A stretch of DNA of 64,000 nt from Pseudomonadota bacterium (GTDB taxonomy: Bacteria > Pseudomonadota > Gammaproteobacteria > Burkholderiales > JAKAFK01), in NCBI GenBank assembly GCA_021788645.1, contig JAJYKK010000008.1:2072-66071 (forward strand), read 5' to 3'. The notes beneath the pieces are model-generated. The model was not told where the DNA came from and did not search any database. It saw only the letters and a program-made list of their open reading frames with translations. Shown piece by piece: positions 2,036 to 26,997 of this stretch. The position numbers were made by a program, and so were the translations under genes. Each line of letters opens with the position of its first letter. Position 1 is the first letter of the stretch.

Positions 2036-3397
2036 TCAGATTCCGTATTTCTTGATCTTGTACCACAGCGAACGCTCGCTGATCTCCAGCAGGCGCGCGG
2101 CCGCGGACTTGTTGTCGCCGGCCCGGCTGAGCGCCTCTTCGATGAGGCCCCTCTCGAGCTCGGCCACTTGCGGCTCCATGGCCAGCGCTTGCGGCCACTT
2201 CGCGCGCGATTCGCCCGAGGAGGCCCCCAGGAAGGGCTTGAACAGGGCCTCGGGCAACAGGGTCGAGCTGATGGTCTCCCCTCGGCTGAGCACCGCGGCG
2301 CGCTCCATCATGTTCTCAAGTTCCCGGATGTTGCCCGGCCAGCGGTACTCATCCAGACGCCGCAAGGCGCTCGCGTCAAGCTCGGGCACGCGACGGCCCA
2401 GCTCGCGGCAGTGTTTCGCCAGGAAATGCCGGGCGAGCAGCGGGATGTCTTGCCGGCGCTCGCGCAATGCCGGCACATCCAGGCGCACCACGTTGAGGCG
2501 GAAATAGAGGTCCTGGCGCAAAGCGCCTTCCGCGACGGCTTCCTGGGGATCCCGGTTGGTGGCCGCCACCACGCGCAAGTCGATCGCGACCGGCCTATGG
2601 CTGCCCAGGCGCTCCACGCTGTTTTCCTGCAGAACACGCAACAGCTTGGCCTGCAGCGCCATGGGCATTTCGGTGACCTCGTCGAGAAACAGCGTGCCCC
2701 CGCTCGAGGCCTCGAACCGCCCCATCCGGTCCCTGTCCGCACCGGTGAAGGCGCCCTTGCGGTGGCCAAACAGCTCGCTTTCCAACAGGTCGGCGGGAAT
2801 CGCGGCACAGTTGATCGGGACGAAGAGCCCGCCGCGGCCGGATTCCTGGTGGATCGCCCGGGCGACGAGTTCCTTGCCGGTGCCCGTCTCGCCGATGACG
2901 AATACCCCGCTGCGCGTGGGCGCCACCTGCCGGATCAGCTCATACAAGGCGAGCATCGCGGGGCTTTGGCCGACGAACTCACCGAAGCCGCGCCCCATCT
3001 CCTCGCGCAGAAAGCGGTTCTCGCGGTCCATGTGCGCCACGGCGAGCGCGCGCGAGACGGCGAGCTCGACCGCAGACATTTCGAACGGCCGGATGATGTA
3101 GTCGATGGCCCCGAGCTTCATGGCCTCGACCGCGCTCGTCACGCTGCCGTGCGCGGTGAGGACGACGACCGGGACGGCTTCGCCCCGCTCGCGCAAGGCG
3201 CGCAGCAGGCCGAGGCCATCGAGCTTCGGCATGCGCAGGTCCGTCAGCACGAGGTCGCACGGCGCCTCGGCGAATCGATCGAGCGCTTCCACGCCGTCGG
3301 CGGCGTGCACCACCTCATGCCCCATGGCCAGGAGCGCGATCTCCAATATCCTGCGCATCTTGTCTTCGTCGTCGACCACAAGGATGCGGTTCGTCAC
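2036..3397 (-). CDS. Sigma-54-dependent response regulator (NtrC/AtoC family: REC-AAA+-Fis HTH)
   Basis: ILVVDDE...DLRMP receiver; GETGTGKE, ESELFGH, GAFTGA, LFLDE, WPGNIRELEN; C-terminal HTH NKSAAARLLEIS. Confidence 0.95.
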   Translation of the reverse strand: MTNRILVVDDEDKMRRILEIALLAMGHEVVHAADGVEALDRFAEAPCDLVLTDLRMPKLDGLGLLRALRERGEAVPVVVLTAHGSVTSAVEAMKLGAIDYIIRPFEMSAVELAVSRALAVAHMDRENRFLREEMGRGFGEFVGQSPAMLALYELIRQVAPTRSGVFVIGETGTGKELVARAIHQESGRGGLFVPINCAAIPADLLESELFGHRKGAFTGADRDRMGRFEASSGGTLFLDEVTEMPMALQAKLLRVLQENSVERLGSHRPVAIDLRVVAATNRDPQEAVAEGALRQDLYFRLNVVRLDVPALRERRQDIPLLARHFLAKHCRELGRRVPELDASALRRLDEYRWPGNIRELENMMERAAVLSRGETISSTLLPEALFKPFLGASSGESRAKWPQALAMEPQVAELERGLIEEALSRAGDNKSAAARLLEISERSLWYKIKKYGI

Positions 3398-5204
3398 GTG
3401 AGTTCTCCTTGTCGTTCGGGCGCGAACACGACGGCAAATCCCGCGCCCCCCAGGGGGGACGCCCCCGCCGTGATCTCGCCGTGGTGCGCATGGACAATCT
3501 GCTGCACGATCGTGAGCCCGAGGCCGACACCGCCTTGCCGCCGGGTAAAAAAGGGATCGAAGACCCGATCCCGCTCGTCCGGCGCAATGCCCGGGCCATC
3601 GTCGTCGACCCGCACGACGAGGGTCTGCGCCCCGTTGACGTGCTCAATCGGATCCGCCCGCCTTCCGGCACATGCTGAAGGGCGTTGATCACCAGGTTCA
3701 GAACCACCTGCACCATCTGTTCCCGATCGCAGGCCAGCACCGACTGCCGCGCCGCCAGCCGGGCGTCGAGCCTGATGCCGTTCTTATTCGCCTTGCTCGC
3801 CGTCAGGGAAAGCACGTGCCGGATGATCTCGTGCACGTCCCGGGGTTGGAACGCGGGCGCGCGCGGGCTCGCGCACTCGAGCAGCGTGGTGACGAGGCCG
3901 TTCAGCCGATCCGTTTCGCTCACGATGAAGCCGGCCAGCTCACGGTCCGACGCCGTCAGGCCGGCGCAACGCTCCAGCATCTGTCCCGAGGACTTGAGGA
4001 TCCCCAGCGGGGTCCGCACCTCGTGCGTCATGATGGCGGCCATCTCGCCGACCACGGCGAGCTTGCCCGCACGCACCACGTGCTCGCGGGAGCGCTCGAG
4101 CGCCTCGATCATGTCGCCGAAGGCCTGGTTGAGCTCGCTCACTTCGCTGATACGGGTCTGCACGACGGGCGCAGAGGCCTTGCGGCCGCGCCGAAAACCC
4201 CGGGCGAACTCGGTCAGGTGCCCGATGGGCGAGGCGAGCCGGCTCGAGAGCCGCATGGATAGCCATGCCGCCACCGCAAGGCTGAAGAGGAGCCCGCCCA
4301 GCATGGCCCAGGCCAGGCGCCACACCGGCGCGAAGGCGACCCGGGTGGGCTCCACGACCACGATGTGCCAGCCGAACCCCGAAAAGTGCTCGTACCCGGA
4401 AGAGGCCGCCGCGCCCACCAACAGCTCGCCGATGCCCGCCACATCGGTCTGCGCGTTGCCACGGCGCGCAGCCGCGCCGCGGCGGAGCGGCGGCACCGGA
4501 AAGGCTCGTGCCTCGAGCCGCGCCGCCAAGCCTCCCGCCGCCGCGATGGCTCGGTTTCGGCTATCCAGGAGCAAGGCGGTGCGACCGCTCCCCGCCACAT
4601 CATCGGCGAGGAAGCCGGATACCGCCTTCCAGTTGAGCTCGGCGTAAAGGTAGCCCAGATTTCCACCCCCGAGCAACGAAGGCACCATCGTGCGCAAGAC
4701 ATAGCGGGGACCCGGCGCGGCCACGCCGCCCGGCCTTTGCTCAAGAACGACCGGGGCGTTCGACGCCTGGCTCGCGTCCGGCATCGCGGGCGCCGGCTGC
4801 CGTATTTTCCCCAGCAGGCGCAAATCGGTGGAAGCAACCACGCGGCCGGCCAGGTTCGTGCAGTACAGCACCTGGTAGACGTCGCCGTGGCCGGCCTTGA
4901 GATCGCTCAGGAACCGCGCCACGCGCTTGTCCACATCCCCGACGCGGATGTCCTGCATGAGTTCCACGCGGCGCCATTCGCGCATCTCCTCCTGGCGCTC
5001 GAAGAAGAACATGTCGATGCGCTGCAGCAGCCCGGAGGCGCTGTTGCCCAGGTTCTCGGCAATCTCCGACTGGAAGGCCCGGCGCACCGCGATGAAGGAC
5101 AAGGCCCCGCTCAGCACCACCGCCGTGACCACCAACACCAGAAACCCGCGCAGGATCGCCGCGCGAATGGTGATCCCGCGCCGCTCCCGGGTTACGGGCG
5201 GCAT
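3394..5204 (-). pseudogene. Membrane sensor histidine kinase (periplasmic sensor, HAMP, HisKA, HATPase) interrupted by a -1 frameshift near 3630-3640
   Basis: ATG 5204 with AGGAG upstream; two TM helices, H-box THEVRTPL and N-box NLVINALQ in one frame; DDGPGI, FDPFFT and GVGLGL boxes in the frame ending at TGA 3394, which overlaps the regulator GTG. Could be a true lesion or a sequencing error. Confidence 0.85.
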
Positions 5205-5240
5205 CGCCTCTCCTGGGCATCCTCCCGCCGGATGGAAAAC

Positions 5241-5249
5241 TGGTACACT
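5241..5249 (+). promoter_or_regulatory. Candidate extended -10 (TGnTACACT) for the beta-barrel/PBP-like operon
   Basis: TGGTACACT in the divergent spacer between the kinase and the beta-barrel gene. Confidence 0.35.
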
Positions 5250-5379
5250 CTTGCCTCTTGCGCGTGCCGACGGGAGCGATCCCGCCGACACAGTCAAACA
5301 ACGATTCAAAGGGTTATGGATGCGAAGGGGGGCGTTGTTGCGACAACAATCCGCAGACCCGACCGGCGGAGATCATAGC

Positions 5380-6486
5380 ATGCCGCCCGCTCGCCGCCCC
5401 AGCGAAGACAGTGCCGATGCGCCGCGGGCGCGTCGGGCAGGCCATCTGCGGCGGCTCCTGCTCGGCCTCCTCATCGCATCGAGCTGGCCCGGCCTGGCGC
5501 ACGGCTACGAACTGGGCCATGGCTATCCCCTGCCCTTCCTCGGGCTGTCGGCGGGAGGCTACTACAACATTCAGGCCGCCTCGCTTGCGGGCGAGCCGAC
5601 CAGGGCCTCGCTCCAGGTCTTGAGCCTCTTCCTCCACGGCAATCCGCGGCCGGACTGGCATTTCTTCACGGAAATCGAGGCGAACAACGTGCTCACGTGG
5701 TCCGAGGGGAACGCGCACAGGCCCGAGGCGGACCTCGACGTCGAACGCTTCTATCTCGACCACAACCTCAGCACGCGCAGCACCGTGCGCTTCGGCAAAT
5801 TCCTCACGCCGATCGGCCGCTGGAATCAGATTCACGCCGACCCCCTGGTGTGGACGGTCTCGCGGCCCTTGACCACCATCGCGGCCTTCGCGCCGAGCGC
5901 CTCCGGCGCCCAGCTCTATGGCAGCTGGCCGGTGCGCAAGGCCGCCATCGACTACCAGCTCTACGTGGACGACTCGGCCCAACTGGATCCCACCATCGGC
6001 CACGAAGAAACCTATCCGGATCTGGCGGTGCGACCCAACCCCCAGAATGCCTTCAACCAGGGCGTGGGCGCCCGCCTGCGCTACCGCAGCTTCAACGACG
6101 ACCTGCAACTGGGTCTGTCCATCGCCCATTTCGCGTTGCGAGAACTGCAGGGCTACAAGAATCTGGTCGGCGCCGATCTCTTCTACACCCGCCACGAGGC
6201 CGAGCTGACCGGAGAAATGGTCTATCGTCGGGACGACAATGGCGGCGGCAAGGAATGGGGAGGCTTCCTGCTGCTCGCCGTCCCCCTGTGGGACCATGTC
6301 TATGGCGTCGCCTATCACGAACGCTTCAAGGCCGAGCTCTTCAGCGTTCCGGTCGACACGACCAGCGTGGGGATCACCTACCGTCCGACCCCGCCATTTT
6401 CGATCAAGATCGAGCACCGCCAGTCCACCGGCACCGCAAGCCTCGCGCCCACGGGGTGGCTGTTTTCCGTGACGGCCCTGTTTTGA
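5380..6486 (+). CDS. Outer-membrane beta-barrel (porin-like) protein
   Basis: Signal peptide (LLLGLLIASSWPGLAHG), alternating amphipathic strands, RFGKFLTPIGRWN motif, C-terminal Phe (WLFSVTALF). Start uncertain. Confidence 0.75.
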   Translation: MPPARRPSEDSADAPRARRAGHLRRLLLGLLIASSWPGLAHGYELGHGYPLPFLGLSAGGYYNIQAASLAGEPTRASLQVLSLFLHGNPRPDWHFFTEIEANNVLTWSEGNAHRPEADLDVERFYLDHNLSTRSTVRFGKFLTPIGRWNQIHADPLVWTVSRPLTTIAAFAPSASGAQLYGSWPVRKAAIDYQLYVDDSAQLDPTIGHEETYPDLAVRPNPQNAFNQGVGARLRYRSFNDDLQLGLSIAHFALRELQGYKNLVGADLFYTRHEAELTGEMVYRRDDNGGGKEWGGFLLLAVPLWDHVYGVAYHERFKAELFSVPVDTTSVGITYRPTPPFSIKIEHRQSTGTASLAPTGWLFSVTALF

Positions 6487-6974
6487 CGGCGCGCGCCTTG
6501 ATCCGGCTCGCATTGGTGGTGCTCTTGCTCTGCCGCGCCGGCGTAAGCCTCGGCGAGGACACCATCGCCGTGATCGTGGGGGATGCGCCCCCGCACATCG
6601 CGCTCGACCGGTCCACGCTCGCGGATATTTTCCTCAAGCGCATAGAGGTCGACAACGACGGGAAGGCCATTGTCCCGCTCAATCTGTCGTCGACCAATCC
6701 GCTTCGGATCGCCTTTTCCCTGGCCTTGTTCGGCAAAGGGCCGCAAGGCCTCCAGCGCTACTGGACGGAGCGCTATTTCCAAGGGGTTTCGCCCCCATAC
6801 ACGGTGGCCTCCCAGGAATCCATGCTGCGCTTCGTGGCCCGTACGCCGGGCGCCATCGGATACGTCGCCGCCTGCCGGGCCGACGCCCGCACCAAGGTCG
6901 TGGCCCGACTTCCCGTCCCGCCCGCCCTCGCTTCCGTGCTCCGCAGGCTGTGCGGGCGCGGCGCTTCACCCTGA
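6483..6974 (+). CDS. Small exported periplasmic-binding-protein-like protein (PstS-like single domain)
   Basis: TTG start overlapping the upstream TGA; signal peptide; IAVIV...LADIFLK, YW..RYFQG.SPP and FVARTPGAIGYV motifs. Confidence 0.75.
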   Translation: MTARALIRLALVVLLLCRAGVSLGEDTIAVIVGDAPPHIALDRSTLADIFLKRIEVDNDGKAIVPLNLSSTNPLRIAFSLALFGKGPQGLQRYWTERYFQGVSPPYTVASQESMLRFVARTPGAIGYVAACRADARTKVVARLPVPPALASVLRRLCGRGASP

Positions 6975-7142
6975 CGCCGCCACGGCTTGGCGGGTCCTTG
7001 CACTTAGACTGGACATCCCATTTGGGCGTTCCCCGGGCCTCGCACGCCCGATTTTCCCGATAGCACGCGGCCTGATCGACTCCCGTGGCGGCCCTGCCCT
7101 GCCCGGTTCGCCCCCCGAATCCTCATCGCAATGCGCATCCCG

Positions 7143-7190
7143 TGCAGACAATTTTTGCGCACTCGCTCAATCTTGCGCACTCGCGAATGC
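7143..7190. promoter_or_regulatory. Candidate enhancer (UAS) for a sigma-54 activator
   Basis: Direct repeat TTGCGCACTCGC at 7155-7166 and 7173-7184, plus TGCA/TGCGCA dyads, ~55-90 bp upstream of the -24/-12 element. Confidence 0.5.
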
Positions 7191-7236
7191 GCCATATTCG
7201 CCACACTGTTATTAATAATCAGAATGGTACGAGTCA

Positions 7237-7252
7237 TGGCATGAATCTGGCT
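7237..7252 (+). promoter_or_regulatory. Sigma-54 (-24/-12) promoter
   Basis: TGGCATGAATCTGGCT has GG-N10-GC spacing, is preceded by an AT-rich tract (7208-7225) and lies 40 bp before ATG 7292. Confidence 0.65.
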
Positions 7253-7291
7253 CATGCGGGAGGACGCTTATCGCCGAGGTCCATCCCGCAC

Positions 7292-8023
7292 ATGATCACC
7301 GACACCCCGTTCGTCGACACCCACGTCGATCCGCTGCTCGCGGAAATCCCGGCCCACTTCTCCCTCGATCTGGCCGGCCCGTCACACCCCGCCCGCCCCG
7401 CGCTCGAAGCCTTCGTGGCCGGCGTATTCCTGCGCGCCTATGGCGCCCGACTCGACCGCTTTTACGCCAACCTTCTCGCCTTCGGCATCGGCGGAAGGCT
7501 GCAGGCGGTGGTGGGCGCGCGTTGCGCGCAATCGACCCGCTTGTTCGCCGAGCAATACCTCGATGGCCCGGCGCAGGAGCTGGCGAGCGCGCGGCTCGGC
7601 CATCCGATCAGCCGCGCCAGCATCGTGGAAGTCGGGAATCTCGCCATCGGCTCTCCCGGGCAAGCGCGCTTGATCATTGCCGCAAGCACCGCCTTCATGG
7701 CGGCAGCCGGATACCGCTGGGTCCTCTTCACCGCCGTCCGGCCGCTCGCCAACGCATTCGCGCGCCTGGGCCTGCGGCCCATGGCCCTCGCCGACGCCGA
7801 TCCTCGCCGCCTACCGGATGGCGGCATGTCGTGGGGCACCTATTACCGGGCCTCGCCCAAGGTCTATCTGGGCGACATCCTCGCGGGCCATCGTAAACTC
7901 TTTGGCGGCGTCGCCCGCCACCCCCAACTGAGGAGCCTCCTCCAATCCGCCGGCAGGCTGGGGACCGGCGCGCACCTCGCTGCGTGCGCATGGACGTGGC
8001 CAATCGCGGAGGCACGCCCATGA
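7292..8023 (+). CDS. 'Thermostable hemolysin' family protein (function unverified)
   Basis: R..LEAFV...F..AYGA, LFAEQYLDGP, IVEVGNLA, WVLFTA, WGTYY motifs; first gene of the cluster. Confidence 0.85.
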   Translation: MITDTPFVDTHVDPLLAEIPAHFSLDLAGPSHPARPALEAFVAGVFLRAYGARLDRFYANLLAFGIGGRLQAVVGARCAQSTRLFAEQYLDGPAQELASARLGHPISRASIVEVGNLAIGSPGQARLIIAASTAFMAAAGYRWVLFTAVRPLANAFARLGLRPMALADADPRRLPDGGMSWGTYYRASPKVYLGDILAGHRKLFGGVARHPQLRSLLQSAGRLGTGAHLAACAWTWPIAEARP

Positions 8024-9507
8024 AGGTCCTTCTGGAGCGCGTCCGCGCACACGCCAGTCACCGTCCACGCCAGTTGGCCCTGCGGGACGAACAGGGGGAG
8101 CTGGATTACCCAGGGCTTCTCGCCGAGGTCGAGTGCCTTCGGGCACTGGTTCGCGGACAACGGGTCGGCCTGTTGCTGGACAATGGTCTCGCCTGGGTCT
8201 GCCTGGATCTGGCCGTTCTCGCGCACGGCGGCATCGCGGTTCCCCTCCCGACGTTCTTCTCCGACGGGCAGTTGAGCCACGTGCTGAACGATGCCGGCGT
8301 GACGCGGGTCATCACGGATCAGCCGGAGCGTGTCGCGGCGCTGCTCAATGCCCCGCCCGACACCGTCATCGCGGTCGCCGGGCGGGGCCTGGGCTTGTTT
8401 CGGCGCAGGTGCGGCGATCCGCCAAGGCTCCCCGCCGATACCGCGAAAATCACCTACACCTCGGGCTCCACGGGCGCGCCCAAGGGCGTGTGCCTGTCCG
8501 GCGAGACGCTGGCCGGGGTCACGCAGGCGCTGTGCGAGGCCGTGCGAGGCACGGCGAACGACCGTTGCCTGTCGGTCTTGCCCCTGTCCACCCTCCTGGA
8601 AAACATTGCCGGCGTCTATGCGCCGCTCTGGGCCGGCGGATTGAGCCAGGTGCCCTCCCTGTCTTGCTGCGGCGTATCCGGCTCCTCCGGGGTGCGCGTC
8701 GAGGCGCTGTTCAGGGTGATGCACTGGGCCGCTCCCACCATTACCGTCCTCGTCCCCCAGTTGCTCAAGGCCGTGGTCGGCGGCGCTACCGGCGGGCTGA
8801 GCGTGCCGGCGTCGCTGCGTTTCGTCGCCGTGGGCGGCGCGCCGCTCGCCGCACCTCTGGCGGCGCAGGCGCGCCGGCTGGGCCTGCCGGTATTCGAGGG
8901 CTTCGGCCTGTCCGAGGCCGGCTCCGTGGTGTGCCTCAACCTCCCGGACGCCGAACGCCCCGGCAGCGTGGGCAGGGCACTGCCCCACGTGCAGGTGCGC
9001 ATCCACGCGAGCGGCGAGGTCATGGTCCGCGGAGCGGTGTTTCAAGGCTACCTGGGCGGCGCTTGCGGCCTGGCGTCGGGCGAGCTCGCCACCGGCGATC
9101 TGGGCTACCTGGATGCGGACGGATTCCTTTTCCTGACCGGGCGCAAGGCGACGTCCTATTCCACCGCCTTCGGGCGCAACGTCGCGCCGGAATGGCTGGA
9201 GGCACTGCTCGCCGGCCATCCCGACATTGCCCAAGCCGCGGTGTTCGGCGCGGGGAGGCCGTTCAACGTCGCCGTCGTGGTGCCCGGGCGGGGCGCGTCG
9301 CCCGAGGCCGTGGGACAGGCCGTGACCGCGATCAACGGCGGGCTGCCCGACTATGCGCAAATTGGTGCGTGGGTGGTCGCCGACGAACCCTTCTCCGGCG
9401 CCAACGGCCTGCTCAACGGGGCGGGCTGCCCCATGCGGGCGGCCATCGCGGCGGCCTATCGGACGCCTATTGCGCAAAAGTACGAGGAAGCCCATGACGT
9501 TCTATGA
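8020..9507 (+). CDS. AMP-binding (adenylate-forming, acyl-CoA synthetase-like) enzyme
   Basis: ITYTSGSTGAPKGV P-loop, GFGLSE, TGDLG, TGRK, GRNVAPEWLE; ATGA overlap with the upstream gene. Confidence 0.9.
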   Translation: MKVLLERVRAHASHRPRQLALRDEQGELDYPGLLAEVECLRALVRGQRVGLLLDNGLAWVCLDLAVLAHGGIAVPLPTFFSDGQLSHVLNDAGVTRVITDQPERVAALLNAPPDTVIAVAGRGLGLFRRRCGDPPRLPADTAKITYTSGSTGAPKGVCLSGETLAGVTQALCEAVRGTANDRCLSVLPLSTLLENIAGVYAPLWAGGLSQVPSLSCCGVSGSSGVRVEALFRVMHWAAPTITVLVPQLLKAVVGGATGGLSVPASLRFVAVGGAPLAAPLAAQARRLGLPVFEGFGLSEAGSVVCLNLPDAERPGSVGRALPHVQVRIHASGEVMVRGAVFQGYLGGACGLASGELATGDLGYLDADGFLFLTGRKATSYSTAFGRNVAPEWLEALLAGHPDIAQAAVFGAGRPFNVAVVVPGRGASPEAVGQAVTAINGGLPDYAQIGAWVVADEPFSGANGLLNGAGCPMRAAIAAAYRTPIAQKYEEAHDVL

Positions 9508-10156
9508 CCACCTGGTCGTGCAGACCGCGCAGGCGCGCGACCGGATGCGCGCCTGCCCCCTCGTCACCCGCGCGCTCGCAGGCGAGGTGTCCCTTGCCGA
9601 ATACCGGCTTTTTCTGGAACAGGCCTATCACCACGTCAAGCATACCGTTCCGCTCCTCATGGCTTGCGGCGCCCGATTGCCTGAGCGCCTAGCCTGGCTG
9701 CGCACCGCCATCGTCCGCTACATCGGGGAGGAAGACGGTCACGAGACATGGATTCTGGATGATCTTGCCGCAATAGGCGGCGACCCGAACGCGGTGCGCG
9801 GCGGCTTGCCGCTCACGGCCACGGAACTCATGGTGGCCTATGCCTACGACACGATCCACCGGGGCAATCCGGCGGGCTTCTTCGGCATGGTCTACGTCCT
9901 GGAAGGCACGAGCGTCGCCCTCGCCCATGCAGTGGCCGGCGCGCTCCAGCGGCACCTGCGGTTGCCGGATCAAGCGCTTCGCTACCTCACGTCCCATGGG
10001 AGCGTGGACCAGGGGCATGTCCGCTTCCTGGAAACGCTGCTCAATCGCCTGGAGTCGGAGGAGGACCAGGCCGCGGTGCTCCATGCCGCGCAGGTGTTCT
10101 TCCGCCTCTACCGGGAGATGTTCGGCGCGATCGGCGCGTATTGTTTGTCTTGTTAG
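9494..10156 (+). CDS. Heme-oxygenase-like diiron ('iron-containing redox') enzyme, TenA/PqqC/CADD fold
   Basis: QAYHHVKHT, EEDGHETW, VLEGTS and SHGSVDQGH supply His/carboxylate metal ligands. Confidence 0.85.
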   Translation: MTFYDHLVVQTAQARDRMRACPLVTRALAGEVSLAEYRLFLEQAYHHVKHTVPLLMACGARLPERLAWLRTAIVRYIGEEDGHETWILDDLAAIGGDPNAVRGGLPLTATELMVAYAYDTIHRGNPAGFFGMVYVLEGTSVALAHAVAGALQRHLRLPDQALRYLTSHGSVDQGHVRFLETLLNRLESEEDQAAVLHAAQVFFRLYREMFGAIGAYCLSC

Positions 10157-10167
10157 GAGAGCACTTC

Positions 10168-10842
10168 GTGAAGAGATATTTTCTGCCCCTCGCCTTGACC
10201 GCGGCGCTGGCGGGCCCGCCCCCCCATGCGGCAGCCGCACCGCTCGATCAGGCGATTTCCGCCGTGGCGCAGCAGTGGGCGCACATCAACTACCAGCTGC
10301 CCCCCGGCCGGCAAGCGGCGGCCTTCGGCGCCCTCGTCAAACAAGAATCCGCCCTGGCCGCGCGCTACCCCGGGCGTGCGGAACCCCTGATCTGGCGCGG
10401 CATCACGCTGAGCTCGCTCGCCGGCGTCGAGGGCGGATTGCACGCACTGGAACTCGTCAAGGAAGCCCGACGTGACCTGCGCGCCTCGCTCAAGATCGAC
10501 CCGACGGCGCTGCAAGGCTCGGCCGACACGTCCCTGGGCGCGCTGTACGACAAGGTCCCGGGCTGGCCCCTGAGCTTCGGAAATGACCGGAAGGCCGAAG
10601 GCTACTTCAGGAAGGCCCTGCAAATCGATCCGAGGAGCATCGACGCCAATTATTTTTACGGCGATTTTCTTTACGGCAAGCACCACTATGCCCAGGCGCT
10701 CGCCGCGCTGCGGCGCGCCCTGGCGGCGCCTCCCCGCCCTGGCCGGCCGCTCGCGGATCAAGGCCGGCGGCAGCAGATCCTTGCGCTCATGGCCAAGATT
10801 CGCGCCCACGGCGGGGGCGTCCTGACTTCGACGGAGCGCTGA
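10168..10842 (+). CDS. Exported TPR-like protein
   Basis: AGGAG then GTG; signal peptide; LGALYDKVPGWPLSFG, KALQIDP..IDANYFYGDFL helical repeats. Confidence 0.8.
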   Translation: MKRYFLPLALTAALAGPPPHAAAAPLDQAISAVAQQWAHINYQLPPGRQAAAFGALVKQESALAARYPGRAEPLIWRGITLSSLAGVEGGLHALELVKEARRDLRASLKIDPTALQGSADTSLGALYDKVPGWPLSFGNDRKAEGYFRKALQIDPRSIDANYFYGDFLYGKHHYAQALAALRRALAAPPRPGRPLADQGRRQQILALMAKIRAHGGGVLTSTER

Positions 10843-10846
10843 AACC

Positions 10847-11656
10847 ATGGACTTCAAAAACCGACGCATCCTGTTGACCGGCGCCGGGGGCGGCATCGGG
10901 CGCATCCTGAGCGAACAGCTTGCCGCCGAGGGCGCGCGGTTGTGTCGCCTGGTGCACTGTTCGCGCGTCAGCGGCGCGGCAGGGCAGCTCGCCAGCGAAG
11001 GCGGCGGGGAAATTTTGACGCTCGCGTGCGATGTCACCCAAAGCGCCGAACGCGAGGACGCGGTCCTCGCGGCGGAAGAAACCTGGGGGGGCGTCGACAT
11101 GCTCATCAATCTGGCCGGCGTCCTCGACTTCAAGCCGTTCCAGGCCATGGAACCGGGCATGCTCCATCGCATGCTGGCGGTCAACATCGAGGCGCCCATG
11201 CAGTTCGCCCGGCTGCTGCTGCCGGGAATGCTGGCGCGCGGCCACGGGCATCTCGTGAACGTGGGCTCCATGTTCGGCAGCATCGGCTTCCCGTTCTTCT
11301 CCGCCTACTCGGCCTCCAAGTTCGCGCTCCGGGGCTTTTCCCAGGCCCTGCGCCGGGAGCTGGCGGGCACCGGGGTGCGGGTGACGTACGTCGCGCCCCG
11401 GGCGGTGAAGACCCCGCTCAATCCGCCGATCGTCCACGAGATGGCCGCGCAAGGCTTGATGACGATGGACGACCCCGAACCGGTCGCGCGCGCCATCCTG
11501 CGCGCCATCGCGCGAGAGCGCGGCGAAGCCTATCTGGGGTTCCCCGAGAGCGTTTTCGCGCGCCTCAACGCGATTTTTCCGGCGCTGGTCGATAAGGCCC
11601 TCGCGAAGCAGACACCGACGCTCGCGCGGTACGCCACGAGCCGCGCCTCCCGCTAA
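10847..11656 (+). CDS. SDR family oxidoreductase
   Basis: TGAGGGIG, NLAG, catalytic S...YSASK. Confidence 0.92.
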   Translation: MDFKNRRILLTGAGGGIGRILSEQLAAEGARLCRLVHCSRVSGAAGQLASEGGGEILTLACDVTQSAEREDAVLAAEETWGGVDMLINLAGVLDFKPFQAMEPGMLHRMLAVNIEAPMQFARLLLPGMLARGHGHLVNVGSMFGSIGFPFFSAYSASKFALRGFSQALRRELAGTGVRVTYVAPRAVKTPLNPPIVHEMAAQGLMTMDDPEPVARAILRAIARERGEAYLGFPESVFARLNAIFPALVDKALAKQTPTLARYATSRASR

Positions 11657-11689
11657 TCCCGTCTTTCACTTTTTGTCCAAAGGAGCGCT

Positions 11690-12313
11690 ATGAACATCAA
11701 GAAAATCCTCCCCCTGGCCGTGGCCCTCGTCAGCGTCAACGCATTCGGCGCGGGCTTTTACGTGGCGGGCGAAGTCACCCACTCCAACGACACGCTGGGC
11801 ACCGCGCATGCCGAGCACGCCTTGACGCAAGCCGGCGCCACCGGAGTCGCGGCCAGCGCAAGCGGCAGCAGCAACCAATGGCGCTTGCAGCTGGGCTATC
11901 GGTTCAATCGCCATTTCGCCGTCGAAGGGGGGTATATCGATTTCGGCCGCGCGAACTATTCCGCCACGTACGCCGGCGGGACGGCGAACGGCACCGTCAA
12001 GGCGGGCGGGGTCGACCTGGCCGCCTTGGGCTTTCTGCCGCTCACGAAGCGTTTTTCGGTGTTCGGCAAAGCGGGACTCGTGGCGGCCCGCGTGACCGAC
12101 GACTTGAGCGCTTCCCCGCCCGCCGGCGCGGCCGCCTCCCACACGGCCACCACCGCGGTCCGTCCTCTGCTCGGCGTCGGGGCAACCTACCGGGTGAGCC
12201 GCACGGTCGACCTCCGGGCGGATTTCGACCACGCGAGCAATCTGGGGAAATCCGGGAAGACCGATGCGCTGACGAGCAACATGCTTTCGCTGGGGGTCGC
12301 GTACAAGTTCTAA
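11690..12313 (+). CDS. Small outer-membrane beta-barrel protein (OmpA-like transmembrane domain)
   Basis: AAGGAG SD; signal peptide; GYRFNRHFAVEGGYIDFG; ends LGVAYKF. Confidence 0.88.
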   Translation: MNIKKILPLAVALVSVNAFGAGFYVAGEVTHSNDTLGTAHAEHALTQAGATGVAASASGSSNQWRLQLGYRFNRHFAVEGGYIDFGRANYSATYAGGTANGTVKAGGVDLAALGFLPLTKRFSVFGKAGLVAARVTDDLSASPPAGAAASHTATTAVRPLLGVGATYRVSRTVDLRADFDHASNLGKSGKTDALTSNMLSLGVAYKF

Positions 12314-12407
12314 ACCACGCGGCGGCATCGCTTGCGCGGGCCGCCGCGGCCTGCTAGTCCGGCTTTATCCCGCACATTGCACGGCACCACCAGACAGGAG
12401 CCAAGAT

Positions 12408-13046
12408 ATGGGGCAAGCGCTGAGGAAAAAGGTCGTCCGTGGCGGCGTGATCATCTGGCTTGCGCTCTTCGCGAGCGAGTCGTTCGCCAACAACGGGCCC
12501 TTCGGCATCGACCACCGCTGGCATTACGACAACAGCGGCATCTGGAAGCGAAGCTACCAGCTGGATCTGCTCGACACCATGATCGTGGGCGAATTTGCCG
12601 GAGGCCTCTACGAGGGCGGCCACAACCGCCTCGGGCGCACCTATTGGCAAGCGATCGATTCCTCCATCCTCGCCGGGGCGTCGGCGCAGGTCCTCAAATA
12701 TGTCTTCACCCGCGCGCGCCCTGCCCAGAGCAACGATCCCAACAAATTCTTCCAGGGCGGCAGCCACTACAGCTTCCCGAGCGGCGAGGTCGCGGGCGTC
12801 ACCAGCATCGTCACCCCGTTCGTGCTCGAGTACCGGCACGAGTATCCGGCGATCTATGCCCTGGAAGCGCTCCCGCTTTATGACGCGGTCGCCCGCATGA
12901 AGGTCCAGGGGCACTGGCAAAGCGACGTCCTGGCGGGCTTTGCGTTGGGTACGTTGACCGGCTGGTATGCCCACTCCAGAAAACACCCGTTCTTCTTGAG
13001 CATTCTCCCTGGCGGCGTCGCCGTCGGCCTGAAGAAACGGTTCTAG
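12408..13046 (+). CDS. PAP2-family phosphatase-like protein
   Basis: K-x6-RP (KYVFTRARP), SFPSGE, R-x5-H-x3-D (RMKVQGHWQSD); AGGAG SD. Confidence 0.85.
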   Translation: MGQALRKKVVRGGVIIWLALFASESFANNGPFGIDHRWHYDNSGIWKRSYQLDLLDTMIVGEFAGGLYEGGHNRLGRTYWQAIDSSILAGASAQVLKYVFTRARPAQSNDPNKFFQGGSHYSFPSGEVAGVTSIVTPFVLEYRHEYPAIYALEALPLYDAVARMKVQGHWQSDVLAGFALGTLTGWYAHSRKHPFFLSILPGGVAVGLKKRF

Positions 13047-13502
13047 GCCCGGCGCGCGGGGCGCACCCCGGCTACAGCGCGGCCCCGCCACCCTGGTCCC
13101 GGCGGGACGTCCCCTTCTTGGGGTGGATGACGGCCACTGCCTCGCCGCGCTCCGGGCGCGCGCCTGTCAGGGCAGGCGCCGCCCCCGCCGCCGATCCCGG
13201 AAGATGGGGCAGCACGGCGCCCACCCCCACGGCGAGGAGAACCGCGTGGCAGAAGACTTGCCATCGCGCGGGCCTACCGCCCGCGCGGCGAGGCCCCTGC
13301 CGCACGAAAAGACGCCGTCGGAAGGCGGGCGCCATGCGCCCATTCGAGCTGAAGACAACGCCGCAGGCCCTGGCGACTCTCCCCATCAACGCACCGCTCA
13401 AGGCATTCTCGCACCCCGGCCCCGTCATGACAGATGAATTGGGGATCGGCGACTAGCAAAACGGCCGCGGCGGACTCGCGCGTAGGAGTGGGCGTCGCCC
13501 GG

Positions 13503-13536
13503 AAAAAACAAACCCCCGTTTTTAGGCGGGGGTTTG
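13503..13536 (-). terminator. Intrinsic terminator of the rrn operon
   Basis: CAAACCCCCG..CGGGGGTTTG hairpin followed by a T-tract on the minus strand, just after 5S. Confidence 0.85.
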
Positions 13537-13547
13537 AGGGAGGGGGA

Positions 13548-13661
13548 GCCTGGCGGTGACCTACTTTCGCATGGGAGACCACACTATCATCGGCGCGCAA
13601 CCGTTTCACTTCCGAGTTCGGGATGGGATCGGGTGGGTCCAGCTGGCTATGGCCGCCAGGC
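13548..13661 (-). rRNA. rrf: 5S rRNA
   Basis: GCCTGGCGGCCATAGC...CCCGATCCCATCCCGAACTCGGAAGTGAAAC...CCGCCAGGC. Confidence 0.97.
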
Positions 13662-13745
13662 ATAAGGGTTGGGCCGGGGCTAAGGCCCCGGCCTGGCAAA
13701 GGGGAAGGGTACAAGGGTATTGATGTTGAGGCTGCTTAAGGTTAT

Positions 13746-16630
<2,885 letters not shown>

Positions 16631-16737
16631 TATAACCTTAAGAAGCCTCAAGGCCATAAGTACTTAAGCGTTTGCCATACAATCAATACCCGTCCCGCCC
16701 CCCTCTCGGAGAACAGGACTTCTTGTACTTCTTCCAC

Positions 16738-16751
16738 TTTGTTAAAGAACG
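16738..16751 (-). promoter_or_regulatory. Spacer boxA antiterminator
   Basis: GTTCTTTAACAA on the minus strand between tRNA-Ala and 23S. Confidence 0.7.
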
Positions 16752-16805
16752 CAATCCCAAAGGATTCAACTGAAGGCAACGCCCTCACTTCAACCCTCTG
16801 GCTCC

Positions 16806-16881
16806 TGGTGGAGGTGAACGGGATCGAACCGATGACCCCCTGCTTGCAAAGCAGGTGCTCTCCCAGCTGAGCTACACCCCC
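16806..16881 (-). tRNA. tRNA-Ala(TGC)
   Basis: GGGGGTGTAGCTCAGCTGGGAGAGCACCTGCTTTGCAAGCAGG...TCCACCA. Confidence 0.97.
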
Positions 16882-16890
16882 CCTCAAACC

Positions 16891-16967
<77 letters not shown>

Positions 16968-17080
16968 CACGCCACGCGCGAGGGGCCACCCCCTCCTTGC
17001 GCTCACTCACACAGCCGATAAGTTGTGGGCACCCATCCCCGAATTCGAGGCCTCGGGTTTCCCCTCGTCCCCTGTCTCTT

Positions 17081-18619
<1,539 letters not shown>

Positions 18620-26767: not shown

Positions 26768-26898
26768 CGATAGATTGCTACCGCTTCCGGTGATCAGGGC
26801 CATGGCGGCGGGACACCTTACCTCTCATCTTACCAGAACCGGCCCCAGGTGCGCGCCCTGCCCTGTCGACGTGCGCCACCGACGCCGCGCCCAGGCAT

Positions 26899-26997
26899 AA
26901 AAAAGGCGCGGTTCAAATATGACCGCGCCGAATCCACCAAAGAGGAGGATGGAGGAGACACATCGTGAACGCCTGAGCAGCCAAACGCTCACCATGT
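26899..26997 (-). ncRNA. Small RNA with a CU-rich anti-Shine-Dalgarno seed (resembles the Betaproteobacteria toxic sRNA family)
   Basis: 5' hairpin GTGAGCGTTTG/CAGGCGTTCAC, core TGTCTCCTCCATCCTCCTCTTT, terminator GGCGCGGT..ACCGCGCC-T6, and its own promoter. Confidence 0.75.

Follow-up and report, generated by a model that had tools for sequence, protein, structure and literature searches.

NtrC-type activators act on −24/−12 promoters through upstream enhancers. In the DctB/DctD, AtoS/AtoC and PgtA/PgtB/PgtC systems, a kinase with a periplasmic Cache-type sensor is paired with an activator of receiver (REC)–AAA+–HTH_8 architecture, an upstream site and a −24/−12 promoter, and the last of these systems includes a periplasmic accessory protein, PgtC. 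LuxP/LuxQ and TorT/TorS have a two-lobed periplasmic protein of the periplasmic binding protein (PBP) fold encoded beside the sensor kinase, and in the PEP-CTERM/exosortase system a GNAT N-acyl amino acid synthase and an acyl-CoA ligase stand under the sigma-54 pair PrsK/PrsR. Here we analyse a 64,000-nt stretch of a Burkholderiales genome (GenBank assembly GCA_021788645.1, contig JAJYKK010000008.1, positions 2,072–66,071 of the forward strand; hereafter the window, to which all coordinates refer unless a locus is named), and in it an island of eleven genes at 2036–13046. NtrC-type circuits and clusters built around GNAT N-acyl synthases are known kinds, and we read the island as a variant of both.

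Like the Dct, Ato and Pgt pairs, the island has a periplasmic Cache-type kinase, a REC–AAA+–HTH_8 activator, an upstream site and a −24/−12 promoter. Unlike them, it also encodes an OprO/P-like porin together with a PstS-like protein of one lobe; we know of no described NtrC-type system with both, and we found no published description of a sensor architecture that combines such a porin with a single-lobe PstS-like protein. The gene for a PBP-fold protein lies beside the sensor kinase, as in LuxP/LuxQ and TorT/TorS, but the encoded protein has one lobe of ~139 residues where LuxP and TorT have two, and its binding to the kinase is putative. The logic of the PEP-CTERM/exosortase system, a GNAT N-acyl synthase and ligase linked to a sigma-54 two-component system, is also shared, although the window's matches to that system's models are far under their cut-offs (TIGR03098, 101 versus 592 bits; TIGR02915, 373 versus 503) and there is no exosortase gene among the eleven. 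On a narrow balance of probability, we read the island as a sigma-54 cassette of four genes that senses a periplasmic or external cue and would switch on a five-gene acyl-transfer operon.

The link between cassette and operon is predicted from the 317-nt gap between the PBP-like gene and the first gene of the operon, which encodes a T_hemolysin (PF12261) protein. A −24/−12 sigma-54 promoter (TGGCATGAATCTGGCT, 7237–7252, +) lies 40 nt upstream of the T_hemolysin ATG, and a candidate upstream activator sequence (7148–7192, +) consists of ACAATTTTTGCGCA plus two exact copies of the 12-mer TTGCGCACTCGC (7155–7166 and 7173–7184), which has no other site in the 3.06-Mb assembly. Promoter and repeats are where the original prediction had placed them. 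Within ~450 nt upstream of T_hemolysin genes, a match to TGGCAC-N5-TTGCW at 9 or more of 11 positions was present in 16 of 17 cassette-linked loci versus 5 of 93 other loci, and the sole cassette-linked locus lacking it, L172, differs in gene order. The motif ACAATTTTTGC, counted with at most one mismatch on either strand within 230 nt upstream of the −24 element, occurred in 14 of 21 sigma-54-type promoter regions versus 1 of 93 other T_hemolysin upstream regions, a contrast that is indicative only because the sequences used to derive the motif were also those in which it was counted and several of the loci are close kin. In two cassette genomes whose module (as we call the operon's five genes) lies elsewhere in the genome (G152 and G300), the unlinked module still has a −24/−12 element and a similar upstream motif. 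Promoter type thus co-varies with regulator type, which is the main support for this regulator driving this operon and makes the predicted wiring well supported. The regulatory parts are all present: rpoN (Sigma54_DBD, E 5.4e-65, on G000:C25 of this genome), a GAFTGA-containing activator and a kinase that is intact in read-derived contigs. No conserved sigma-54 promoter was found between the kinase and barrel genes, and a search for sigma-70-like sites in 5100–13600 returned none, versus 0.8 expected.

Both halves recur in other genomes. A search of 300 further genomes from the order gave relatives of the cassette's barrel protein in 18, and 12 of the loci were fetched. The four cassette genes have the same divergent layout in eight of these, and the module lies directly downstream in four of the 12 (L028, L029, L032 and L038); L027, L030, L031 and L033 have a full cassette with no adjacent module, and the remaining four loci carry barrel and PBP-like genes with other kinases. 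From the side of the module, PF12261 was found once in this genome; 3 of 40 order-level relatives have it, as do 35 of 400 further genomes from the class. The 32 module loci of the class sample comprise 23 with an OmpR-type regulator and a 2CSK_N kinase, 7 with the sigma-54 cassette and 2 with neither (one of them contig-limited), so that a two-component system adjoins the module in 30 of 32. A scan of species genomes by alignment to the module's heme-oxygenase-like diiron oxidase (HDO) gave at least 597 related stretches, and the best 80 oxidase loci among them divided into 50 OmpR-type, 5 with the sigma-54 cassette and 25 with neither (17 contig-limited); this set overlaps the class sample, as some genomes were fetched both ways. 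In OmpR-type modules the regulator genes are within the same operon. The type of regulator switches at least six times on the ligase tree, where the window falls in a ten-row clade with 100% local support, all ten rows being of the sigma-54 type. The kinase, regulator, barrel and PBP-like genes as a portable conserved cassette, repeatedly joined to the module, are supported by these neighbourhoods. The original prediction took absence of co-occurrence of its sensing and enzyme halves in other genomes as grounds for refutation; the co-occurrence was found, in 4 of 12 barrel loci and 7 of 32 class-sample loci.

Outside these joined loci the cassette has other cargo. The cassette is also present in G140 and G225, two genomes of one genus that are 100% complete and in which PF12261 has no match; there a strong sigma-54 promoter is followed by glycosyltransferases, an ABC exporter (ABC_membrane, ABC_tran) and a histidine phosphatase. 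The cargo in L030 (11087–18363) and L031 reads in full as a GT28-like gene, two GT4 genes, an ABC exporter, an unknown gene and the histidine phosphatase. At L027 (11129–11447; genome G152, the closest cassette), a sigma-54 promoter, TGGCACGAGTATTGCT, is followed by a 65-aa ORF, which matches no known family, and then by panD, with the module on another contig.

The regulator (2036–3397, −) has the features of an NtrC-type sigma-54-dependent enhancer-binding protein: a REC domain (Response_reg, E 2.5e-27) with its Asp in an LTDLRMP context, an AAA+ domain (Sigma54_activat, 1.4e-67) with GAFTGA at residue 215 and a C-terminal helix-turn-helix (HTH_8, 5.3e-12). It also matches the NCBIfam models for AtoC (488 bits, cut-off 714), NtrC (423, cut-off 559), ZraR (384, cut-off 760) and PgtA, all under the cut-offs, and by these curated thresholds it is not an AtoC, NtrC or ZraR equivalog. 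The sensor histidine kinase (~3394–5204, −) is laid out as a transmembrane segment, a periplasmic dCache-like domain, a second transmembrane segment, HisKA and HATPase_c. Its Pfam match to HisKA stands beside a weak one to dCache_1, and hydrophobic segments at ORF residues 45–78 and 329–354 flank a periplasmic stretch of 250 residues.

As assembled, the kinase ORF contains a frameshift at 3636/3637 and is in the wrong frame after about residue 558. A relative's kinase aligns to it in two frames, and positions 37–107 of HATPase_c are encoded by 3633–3397 in the other frame (E 1.6e-17). The sequence of a same-genus genome, G001, is one base longer at 3636/3637, and an extra G behind 3636 is present in independent Logan contigs from all four of four metagenome runs, which belong to a single mine-drainage study and include one possible source sample. 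Because G001 and the contigs from all four runs carry the extra base, the kinase is intact in the population and the frameshift is an assembly error. The corrected kinase has a stop codon that overlaps the GTG start of the regulator. The kinase gene had been recognized before; the break in its assembled ORF had been overlooked.

The two remaining cassette genes point the other way. The first (5380–6486, +) encodes a 368-aa outer-membrane porin-like beta-barrel, probably of OprO/P type to judge from its family relatives and nearest Atlas clusters. The window protein itself has no Pfam or NCBIfam match, but 11 of 23 relatives match Porin_O_P (PF07396) at E ≤ 1 (best 4.5e-6) and 9 of 23 match BBP2 at the same threshold; its nearest Atlas clusters are porins (score 0.98), and its sequence begins with a signal-peptide-like N-terminus and ends in Phe. 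The second gene (6483–6974, +), whose TTG start overlaps the barrel stop, encodes a small periplasmic protein of 163 aa that resembles a single lobe of PstS. It matches PstS 1a54 in phmmer (E 0.0075), and every Foldseek match of its AlphaFold2 model (pLDDT 91.8) down to about E 0.01 is a PstS-type phosphate-binding protein. The mature protein of 139 aa aligns with ~115–130 residues of PstS-type chains that are 241–334 residues long, and it lacks the two-lobe architecture of PstS. Its profile places pvnLpaesplRrafsk opposite vvtREaSSGTRysFes of 1twy, so that the Ser-Gly-Thr loop, which we take to be the phosphate- or anion-binding loop of PstS, is not kept. A predicted complex of the kinase periplasmic domain with the PBP-like protein scored 0.22 against a mark of 0.32 and counts neither way. 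Phosphate is suggested as the cue by the likeness to a porin and to PstS; we set it aside as unsupported, because the PBP-like protein is single-lobed and without the SGT loop.

The operon begins with the T_hemolysin gene (7292–8023, +), whose product matches PF12261, the family founded on Vibrio delta-VPH, at 175.3 bits (cut-off 27) and has no solved relative by sequence. Its AlphaFold2 model (pLDDT 84, pTM 0.83) is a GNAT, the nearest Foldseek matches of which are TofI, LasI, RpaI, MesI, BjaI, EsaI and FeeM (E 2e-6 to 3e-4). VIA-align superposes it on BjaI, TofI, RpaI, LasI, MesI and FeeM with Z 13.8–15.1 over 157–182 residues (14.7–15.1 at an rmsd of ~3 Å for the acyl-homoserine lactone (AHL) synthases) versus Z 11–13 over ~130–145 residues for generic GNATs; by predicted structure the protein has the AHL-synthase type of GNAT fold. 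Structural-alignment identity to the best neighbours, BjaI, RpaI, MesI and FeeM, is 9–14%. Pfam reports no match to Autoind_synth (PF00765) at E ≤ 1, T_hemolysin being the sole family reported. The statement that the locus has no LuxI is therefore right as far as sequence membership goes, but AHL synthases and FeeM are the nearest structures to the fold predicted for the T_hemolysin protein. Unlike AHL-synthase systems, the island adds an HDO, a short-chain dehydrogenase/reductase (SDR) and a TPR protein, and no LuxR-type gene is among its eleven genes. An Autoind_synth-like match (22.7 bits, cut-off 24) at G000:C5:15823–16116, in the same genome outside the window, belongs to a 270-aa ORF that may encode another GNAT N-acyl synthase.

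The start of the second gene overlaps the T_hemolysin stop (ATGA). It encodes an acyl/aryl-CoA-type ligase of the ANL family (8020–9507, +; AMP-binding, E 4.9e-47) with MenE, FadD13 and oxalate-CoA ligase as its nearest solved structures (E 1e-22 to 1e-24). That the T_hemolysin protein is paired with its own CoA-type ligase is consistent with acyl-CoA as the donor. The third product (9494–10156, +) is an HDO by its score for Haem_oxygenas_2 (PF14518; E 1.2e-33, 116.8 bits, cut-off 28.9) and by its carboxylate and histidine metal ligands: all 11 sequences in the alignment keep E79/E80-x-x-H83, E137, H168, D172 and H175 unchanged. Profile alignments were obtained with the unassigned structure 3dde and with CADD 1rcw, the latter placing 'eeelGhe', 'vleGts' and 'ltshGsldlehve' of the profile opposite 'DEENGY', 'SYESQI' and 'FTEHEEADVRHAR' of CADD. 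The fourth gene (10168–10842, +), with a GTG start at 10168 and AGGAGA upstream, encodes a periplasmic TPR protein, recognized by matches to TPR families and by a signal-peptide-like N-terminus with no Cys lipobox, and the fifth (10847–11656, +) an SDR (adh_short, 4e-47; NF006565, 279 bits, over the cut-off of 238). The T_hemolysin, ligase, HDO and SDR proteins have no clear signal or membrane segment, the sole hydrophobic window lying within the ligase fold.

In the fetched loci, a T_hemolysin gene is nearly always followed by ligase, diiron oxidase, SDR and TPR genes, usually in that order; the window and its nearest relatives have TPR before SDR. Short contigs and L095 are the exceptions. 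At L095 (9872–14663), glycolate-oxidase-like genes come straight after the cassette and a T_hemolysin gene; no ligase, oxidase, SDR or TPR gene is present, and from its gene content the locus looks like a remnant or a minimal form of the module. In L114 (11740–17016), from a Zetaproteobacteria metagenome-assembled genome (MAG), genes for an HlyD-type protein, an ABC ATPase and an ABC-2 permease come after the module, and no two-component system is present; an additional ORF of similar size (15898–17016) follows the exporter genes. Carriers of HDO relatives include Pseudomonas, Aromatoleum, Dechloromonas, Hydrogenophaga, Polynucleobacter, Microbulbifer, Pseudoalteromonas and Variovorax, as well as Zetaproteobacteria, Gallionella, Sideroxydans and Thiobacillus, among them MAGs so labelled. 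Pseudomonas capeferrum WCS358, Aromatoleum buckelii and Variovorax paradoxus are cultured bacteria that have the OmpR-type version. The five-gene module is common, yet it is only generically annotated in public records; the Variovorax paradoxus VAI-C cluster, for example, carries only generic names such as 'thermostable hemolysin'.

From gene content, predicted folds, promoter and motif conservation, and co-occurrence, we infer a scheme that covers binding and chemistry, export of the product and the kind of cue. The OprO/P-like porin, the single-lobe PstS-like protein and the dCache kinase would form the sensing side. The kinase would phosphorylate the NtrC-type regulator, which would bind the repeated motif at 7148–7192 and activate the −24/−12 promoter at 7237. 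The ANL ligase would then activate a carboxylic acid, probably a fatty one, with an amine or amino acid receiving the acyl group from the T_hemolysin GNAT; tailoring of the product by oxidation and reduction may fall to the diiron oxidase and SDR, and its handling outside the cytoplasm to the TPR protein. Judging from the modelled folds, the product is most likely a small molecule or lipid that is N-acylated and exported. Export is plausible because the TPR protein is signal-peptide-like and HlyD-type and ABC/ABC-2 genes follow the module in L114.

The original prediction also raised the case in which product and ligand coincide, making the island a positive-feedback loop like quorum sensing. 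An exported N-acyl product would re-enter the periplasm through the porin, and the PBP-like protein and dCache kinase would bind it and induce its synthesis. The predicted AHL-synthase/FeeM-like fold of the T_hemolysin protein would suit such a loop, as would the membrane two-component system beside 30 of the 32 class-sample modules: synthase genes lie beside membrane two-component systems in CqsA/CqsS and PhcB/PhcSR, and LuxP/LuxQ offers the precedent of a binding protein that acts with a kinase in signalling. The regulator genes within the operon of OmpR-type modules would allow positive feedback. However, the identity of product and ligand is not supported. Receptor genes of a quorum-sensing pair are expected to be confined to carriers of the synthase, and the cassette, with its glycosyltransferase cargo, is present in the complete but PF12261-free genomes G140 and G225, which argues against a ligand made by the module. 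Moreover, most modules have an OmpR/2CSK_N system instead, and across the repeated switches on the ligase tree the same module is served either by dCache with porin and PBP-like protein or by 2CSK_N, sensors that are unrelated to each other. An effector operon placed under different inputs fits the unrelated two-component systems and the alternative cassette cargo better than a co-evolving synthase–receptor pair does. From this distribution an environmental cue is more likely than the product itself, and we consider autoinduction an outside chance. We give a similarly low credence to its broadest form, in which T_hemolysin modules, including the Vibrio delta-VPH locus, would be an unrecognised and widespread class of cell–cell signalling: a new N-acyl autoinducer would be made by a LuxI/FeeM-like acyltransferase with ligase, diiron oxidase and SDR and read by the neighbouring two-component system, here a sigma-54 cassette with its own porin and half-PBP co-receptor.

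Several points weigh against the cue-responsive acyl-transfer operon as well, in addition to the limits given above for ACAATTTTTGC. The PBP-like protein is one-lobed and without the PstS anion loop, so that ligand binding is only putative; the acyl acceptor is a guess, as are the parts given to the HDO and SDR; no RNA run was found among the sequencing runs; the ligase tree was made with FastTree only, and some of its rows are the same genome fetched twice. We found no product of this family or cluster described in the published literature, in keeping with the earlier remark that the gene set has no characterised product. Vibrio delta-VPH and delta-VFH have been described as a toxin and not as an enzyme, and PMC11033176 reports recombinant delta-VFH, whose family membership is taken here from the name, to be cytotoxic and to bind plasma-membrane lipids, which would speak for a non-enzymatic role. 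The family name itself derives from delta-VPH. On a toxin reading, the first gene would encode a true membrane-damaging protein ('thermostable hemolysin') and the others would be accessory. We think this highly improbable: the T_hemolysin protein has neither signal peptide nor hydrophobic segment, its predicted fold is that of a GNAT enzyme with invariant polar residues, its gene is translationally coupled to the ligase, and the family is found in free-living iron oxidisers and in a mine-drainage genome.

Remodelling of envelope lipids is a somewhat better rival, though still a doubtful one. The module would make an amino-lipid-like (outer-)membrane lipid under stress, joined here by an OmpA/PagL-like barrel and a PAP2 phosphatase. 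The alternative cargo of the cassette (glycosyltransferases, ABC exporter, histidine phosphatase), the two tail genes (an OmpA-like barrel with a weak PagL match, and PAP2) and the porin and PstS-like parts, which recall phosphate-uptake proteins, would all suit an envelope function, and pmrCAB is a precedent for an envelope-modifying enzyme sharing an operon with an OmpR-type system. On the other hand, the conserved module has no second acyltransferase, acyl carrier protein or flippase, none of the closest relatives was found to carry OmpA-like and PAP2 genes beside it, the PstS anion loop is not conserved and the PagL match is under the cut-off.

Catabolism of fatty acids or related compounds is improbable, although it is how the authors of PMC8304167 read a similar cluster. 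In Pseudomonas alcaligenes AVO110, A9179_RS08440–RS08460 show the same order of product names (AMP-binding, iron-containing redox enzyme, SDR, TPR, response regulator), a likeness that rests on these names, and unlike the window the cluster is of the OmpR-type version. According to Table 4 of that paper these genes are induced together 38- to 389-fold in fungal-exudate medium, its text reports that the cluster's fadD is needed for growth in this medium, and the cluster is called beta-oxidation genes (PMC8304167). On these data the OmpR-type version is inducible, which also counts in favour of our main reading. The acyl-CoA-type ligase and SDR would be at home in a catabolic operon, but no acyl-CoA dehydrogenase, hydratase or thiolase is encoded in the module, whereas a GNAT, a diiron oxidase and a periplasmic TPR protein are, and in L114 it is followed by exporter genes. 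For Vibrio itself, PMC10469919 gives VP1729 (thermostable hemolysin), VP1731 (iron-containing redox enzyme family) and VP1735 (two-component protein) as network neighbours in V. parahaemolyticus, which makes it probable that the founding hemolysin belongs to a cluster of this kind, a likeness by product names.

Should the first enzyme turn out to be an N-acyltransferase of the AHL-synthase/FeeM type, proteins now classed as toxins would instead be enzymes that make a new acylated metabolite or signal. The sigma-54 cassette would be a direct route to both cue and product, and as a portable sensor with a conserved putative operator it could be lifted out as a defined input–output device.

Two further genes follow the SDR gene in the same orientation. 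The first (11690–12313, +) encodes an OmpA-like eight-stranded barrel (OmpA_membrane, 2.2e-24; PagL at 19.4 bits, under the cut-off) with homologues beside the module only in L029 and L169 among the fetched loci; the second (12408–13046, +) encodes a PAP2-family phosphatase (PAP2, 1.5e-14), for which none of the fetched loci showed a homologue next to the module. The operon of the closest relatives stops after SDR, or other genes come next. We therefore regard both as lineage-specific tail genes: all seven co-oriented genes of the original prediction are present, but only the first five form the conserved module. The PAP2 protein has FPSGE at the place where PSGH is the motif of the family; its start resembles a signal peptide, and none of its segments is strongly hydrophobic.

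All eleven genes are where they had been placed, as checked by ORFs and Pfam matches. They are bounded on the left by birA (976–2022, −) and on the right by an rRNA operon (5S to 16S, 13548–18618, −), with a terminator-like hairpin (13536–13509) in between. In G001, the regulator (95% identity) adjoins birA (92%) at a contig end, and GC is even across the region at 0.65–0.72; the description of the genes as non-core is thus borne out in part only. Recent horizontal transfer of the island was considered and rejected, as GC is even and the left end is common to G001. Between the PAP2 gene and the rrn terminator, two overlapping ORFs in 13072–13456 (118 aa, −; 112 aa, +) gave no match in a Pfam scan and are probably non-coding. 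Further along the window, at 26898–26960 (−), lies an Rfam match to RF02278 (Betaproteobacteria toxic small RNA), with 62.3 bits against a gathering score of 50.

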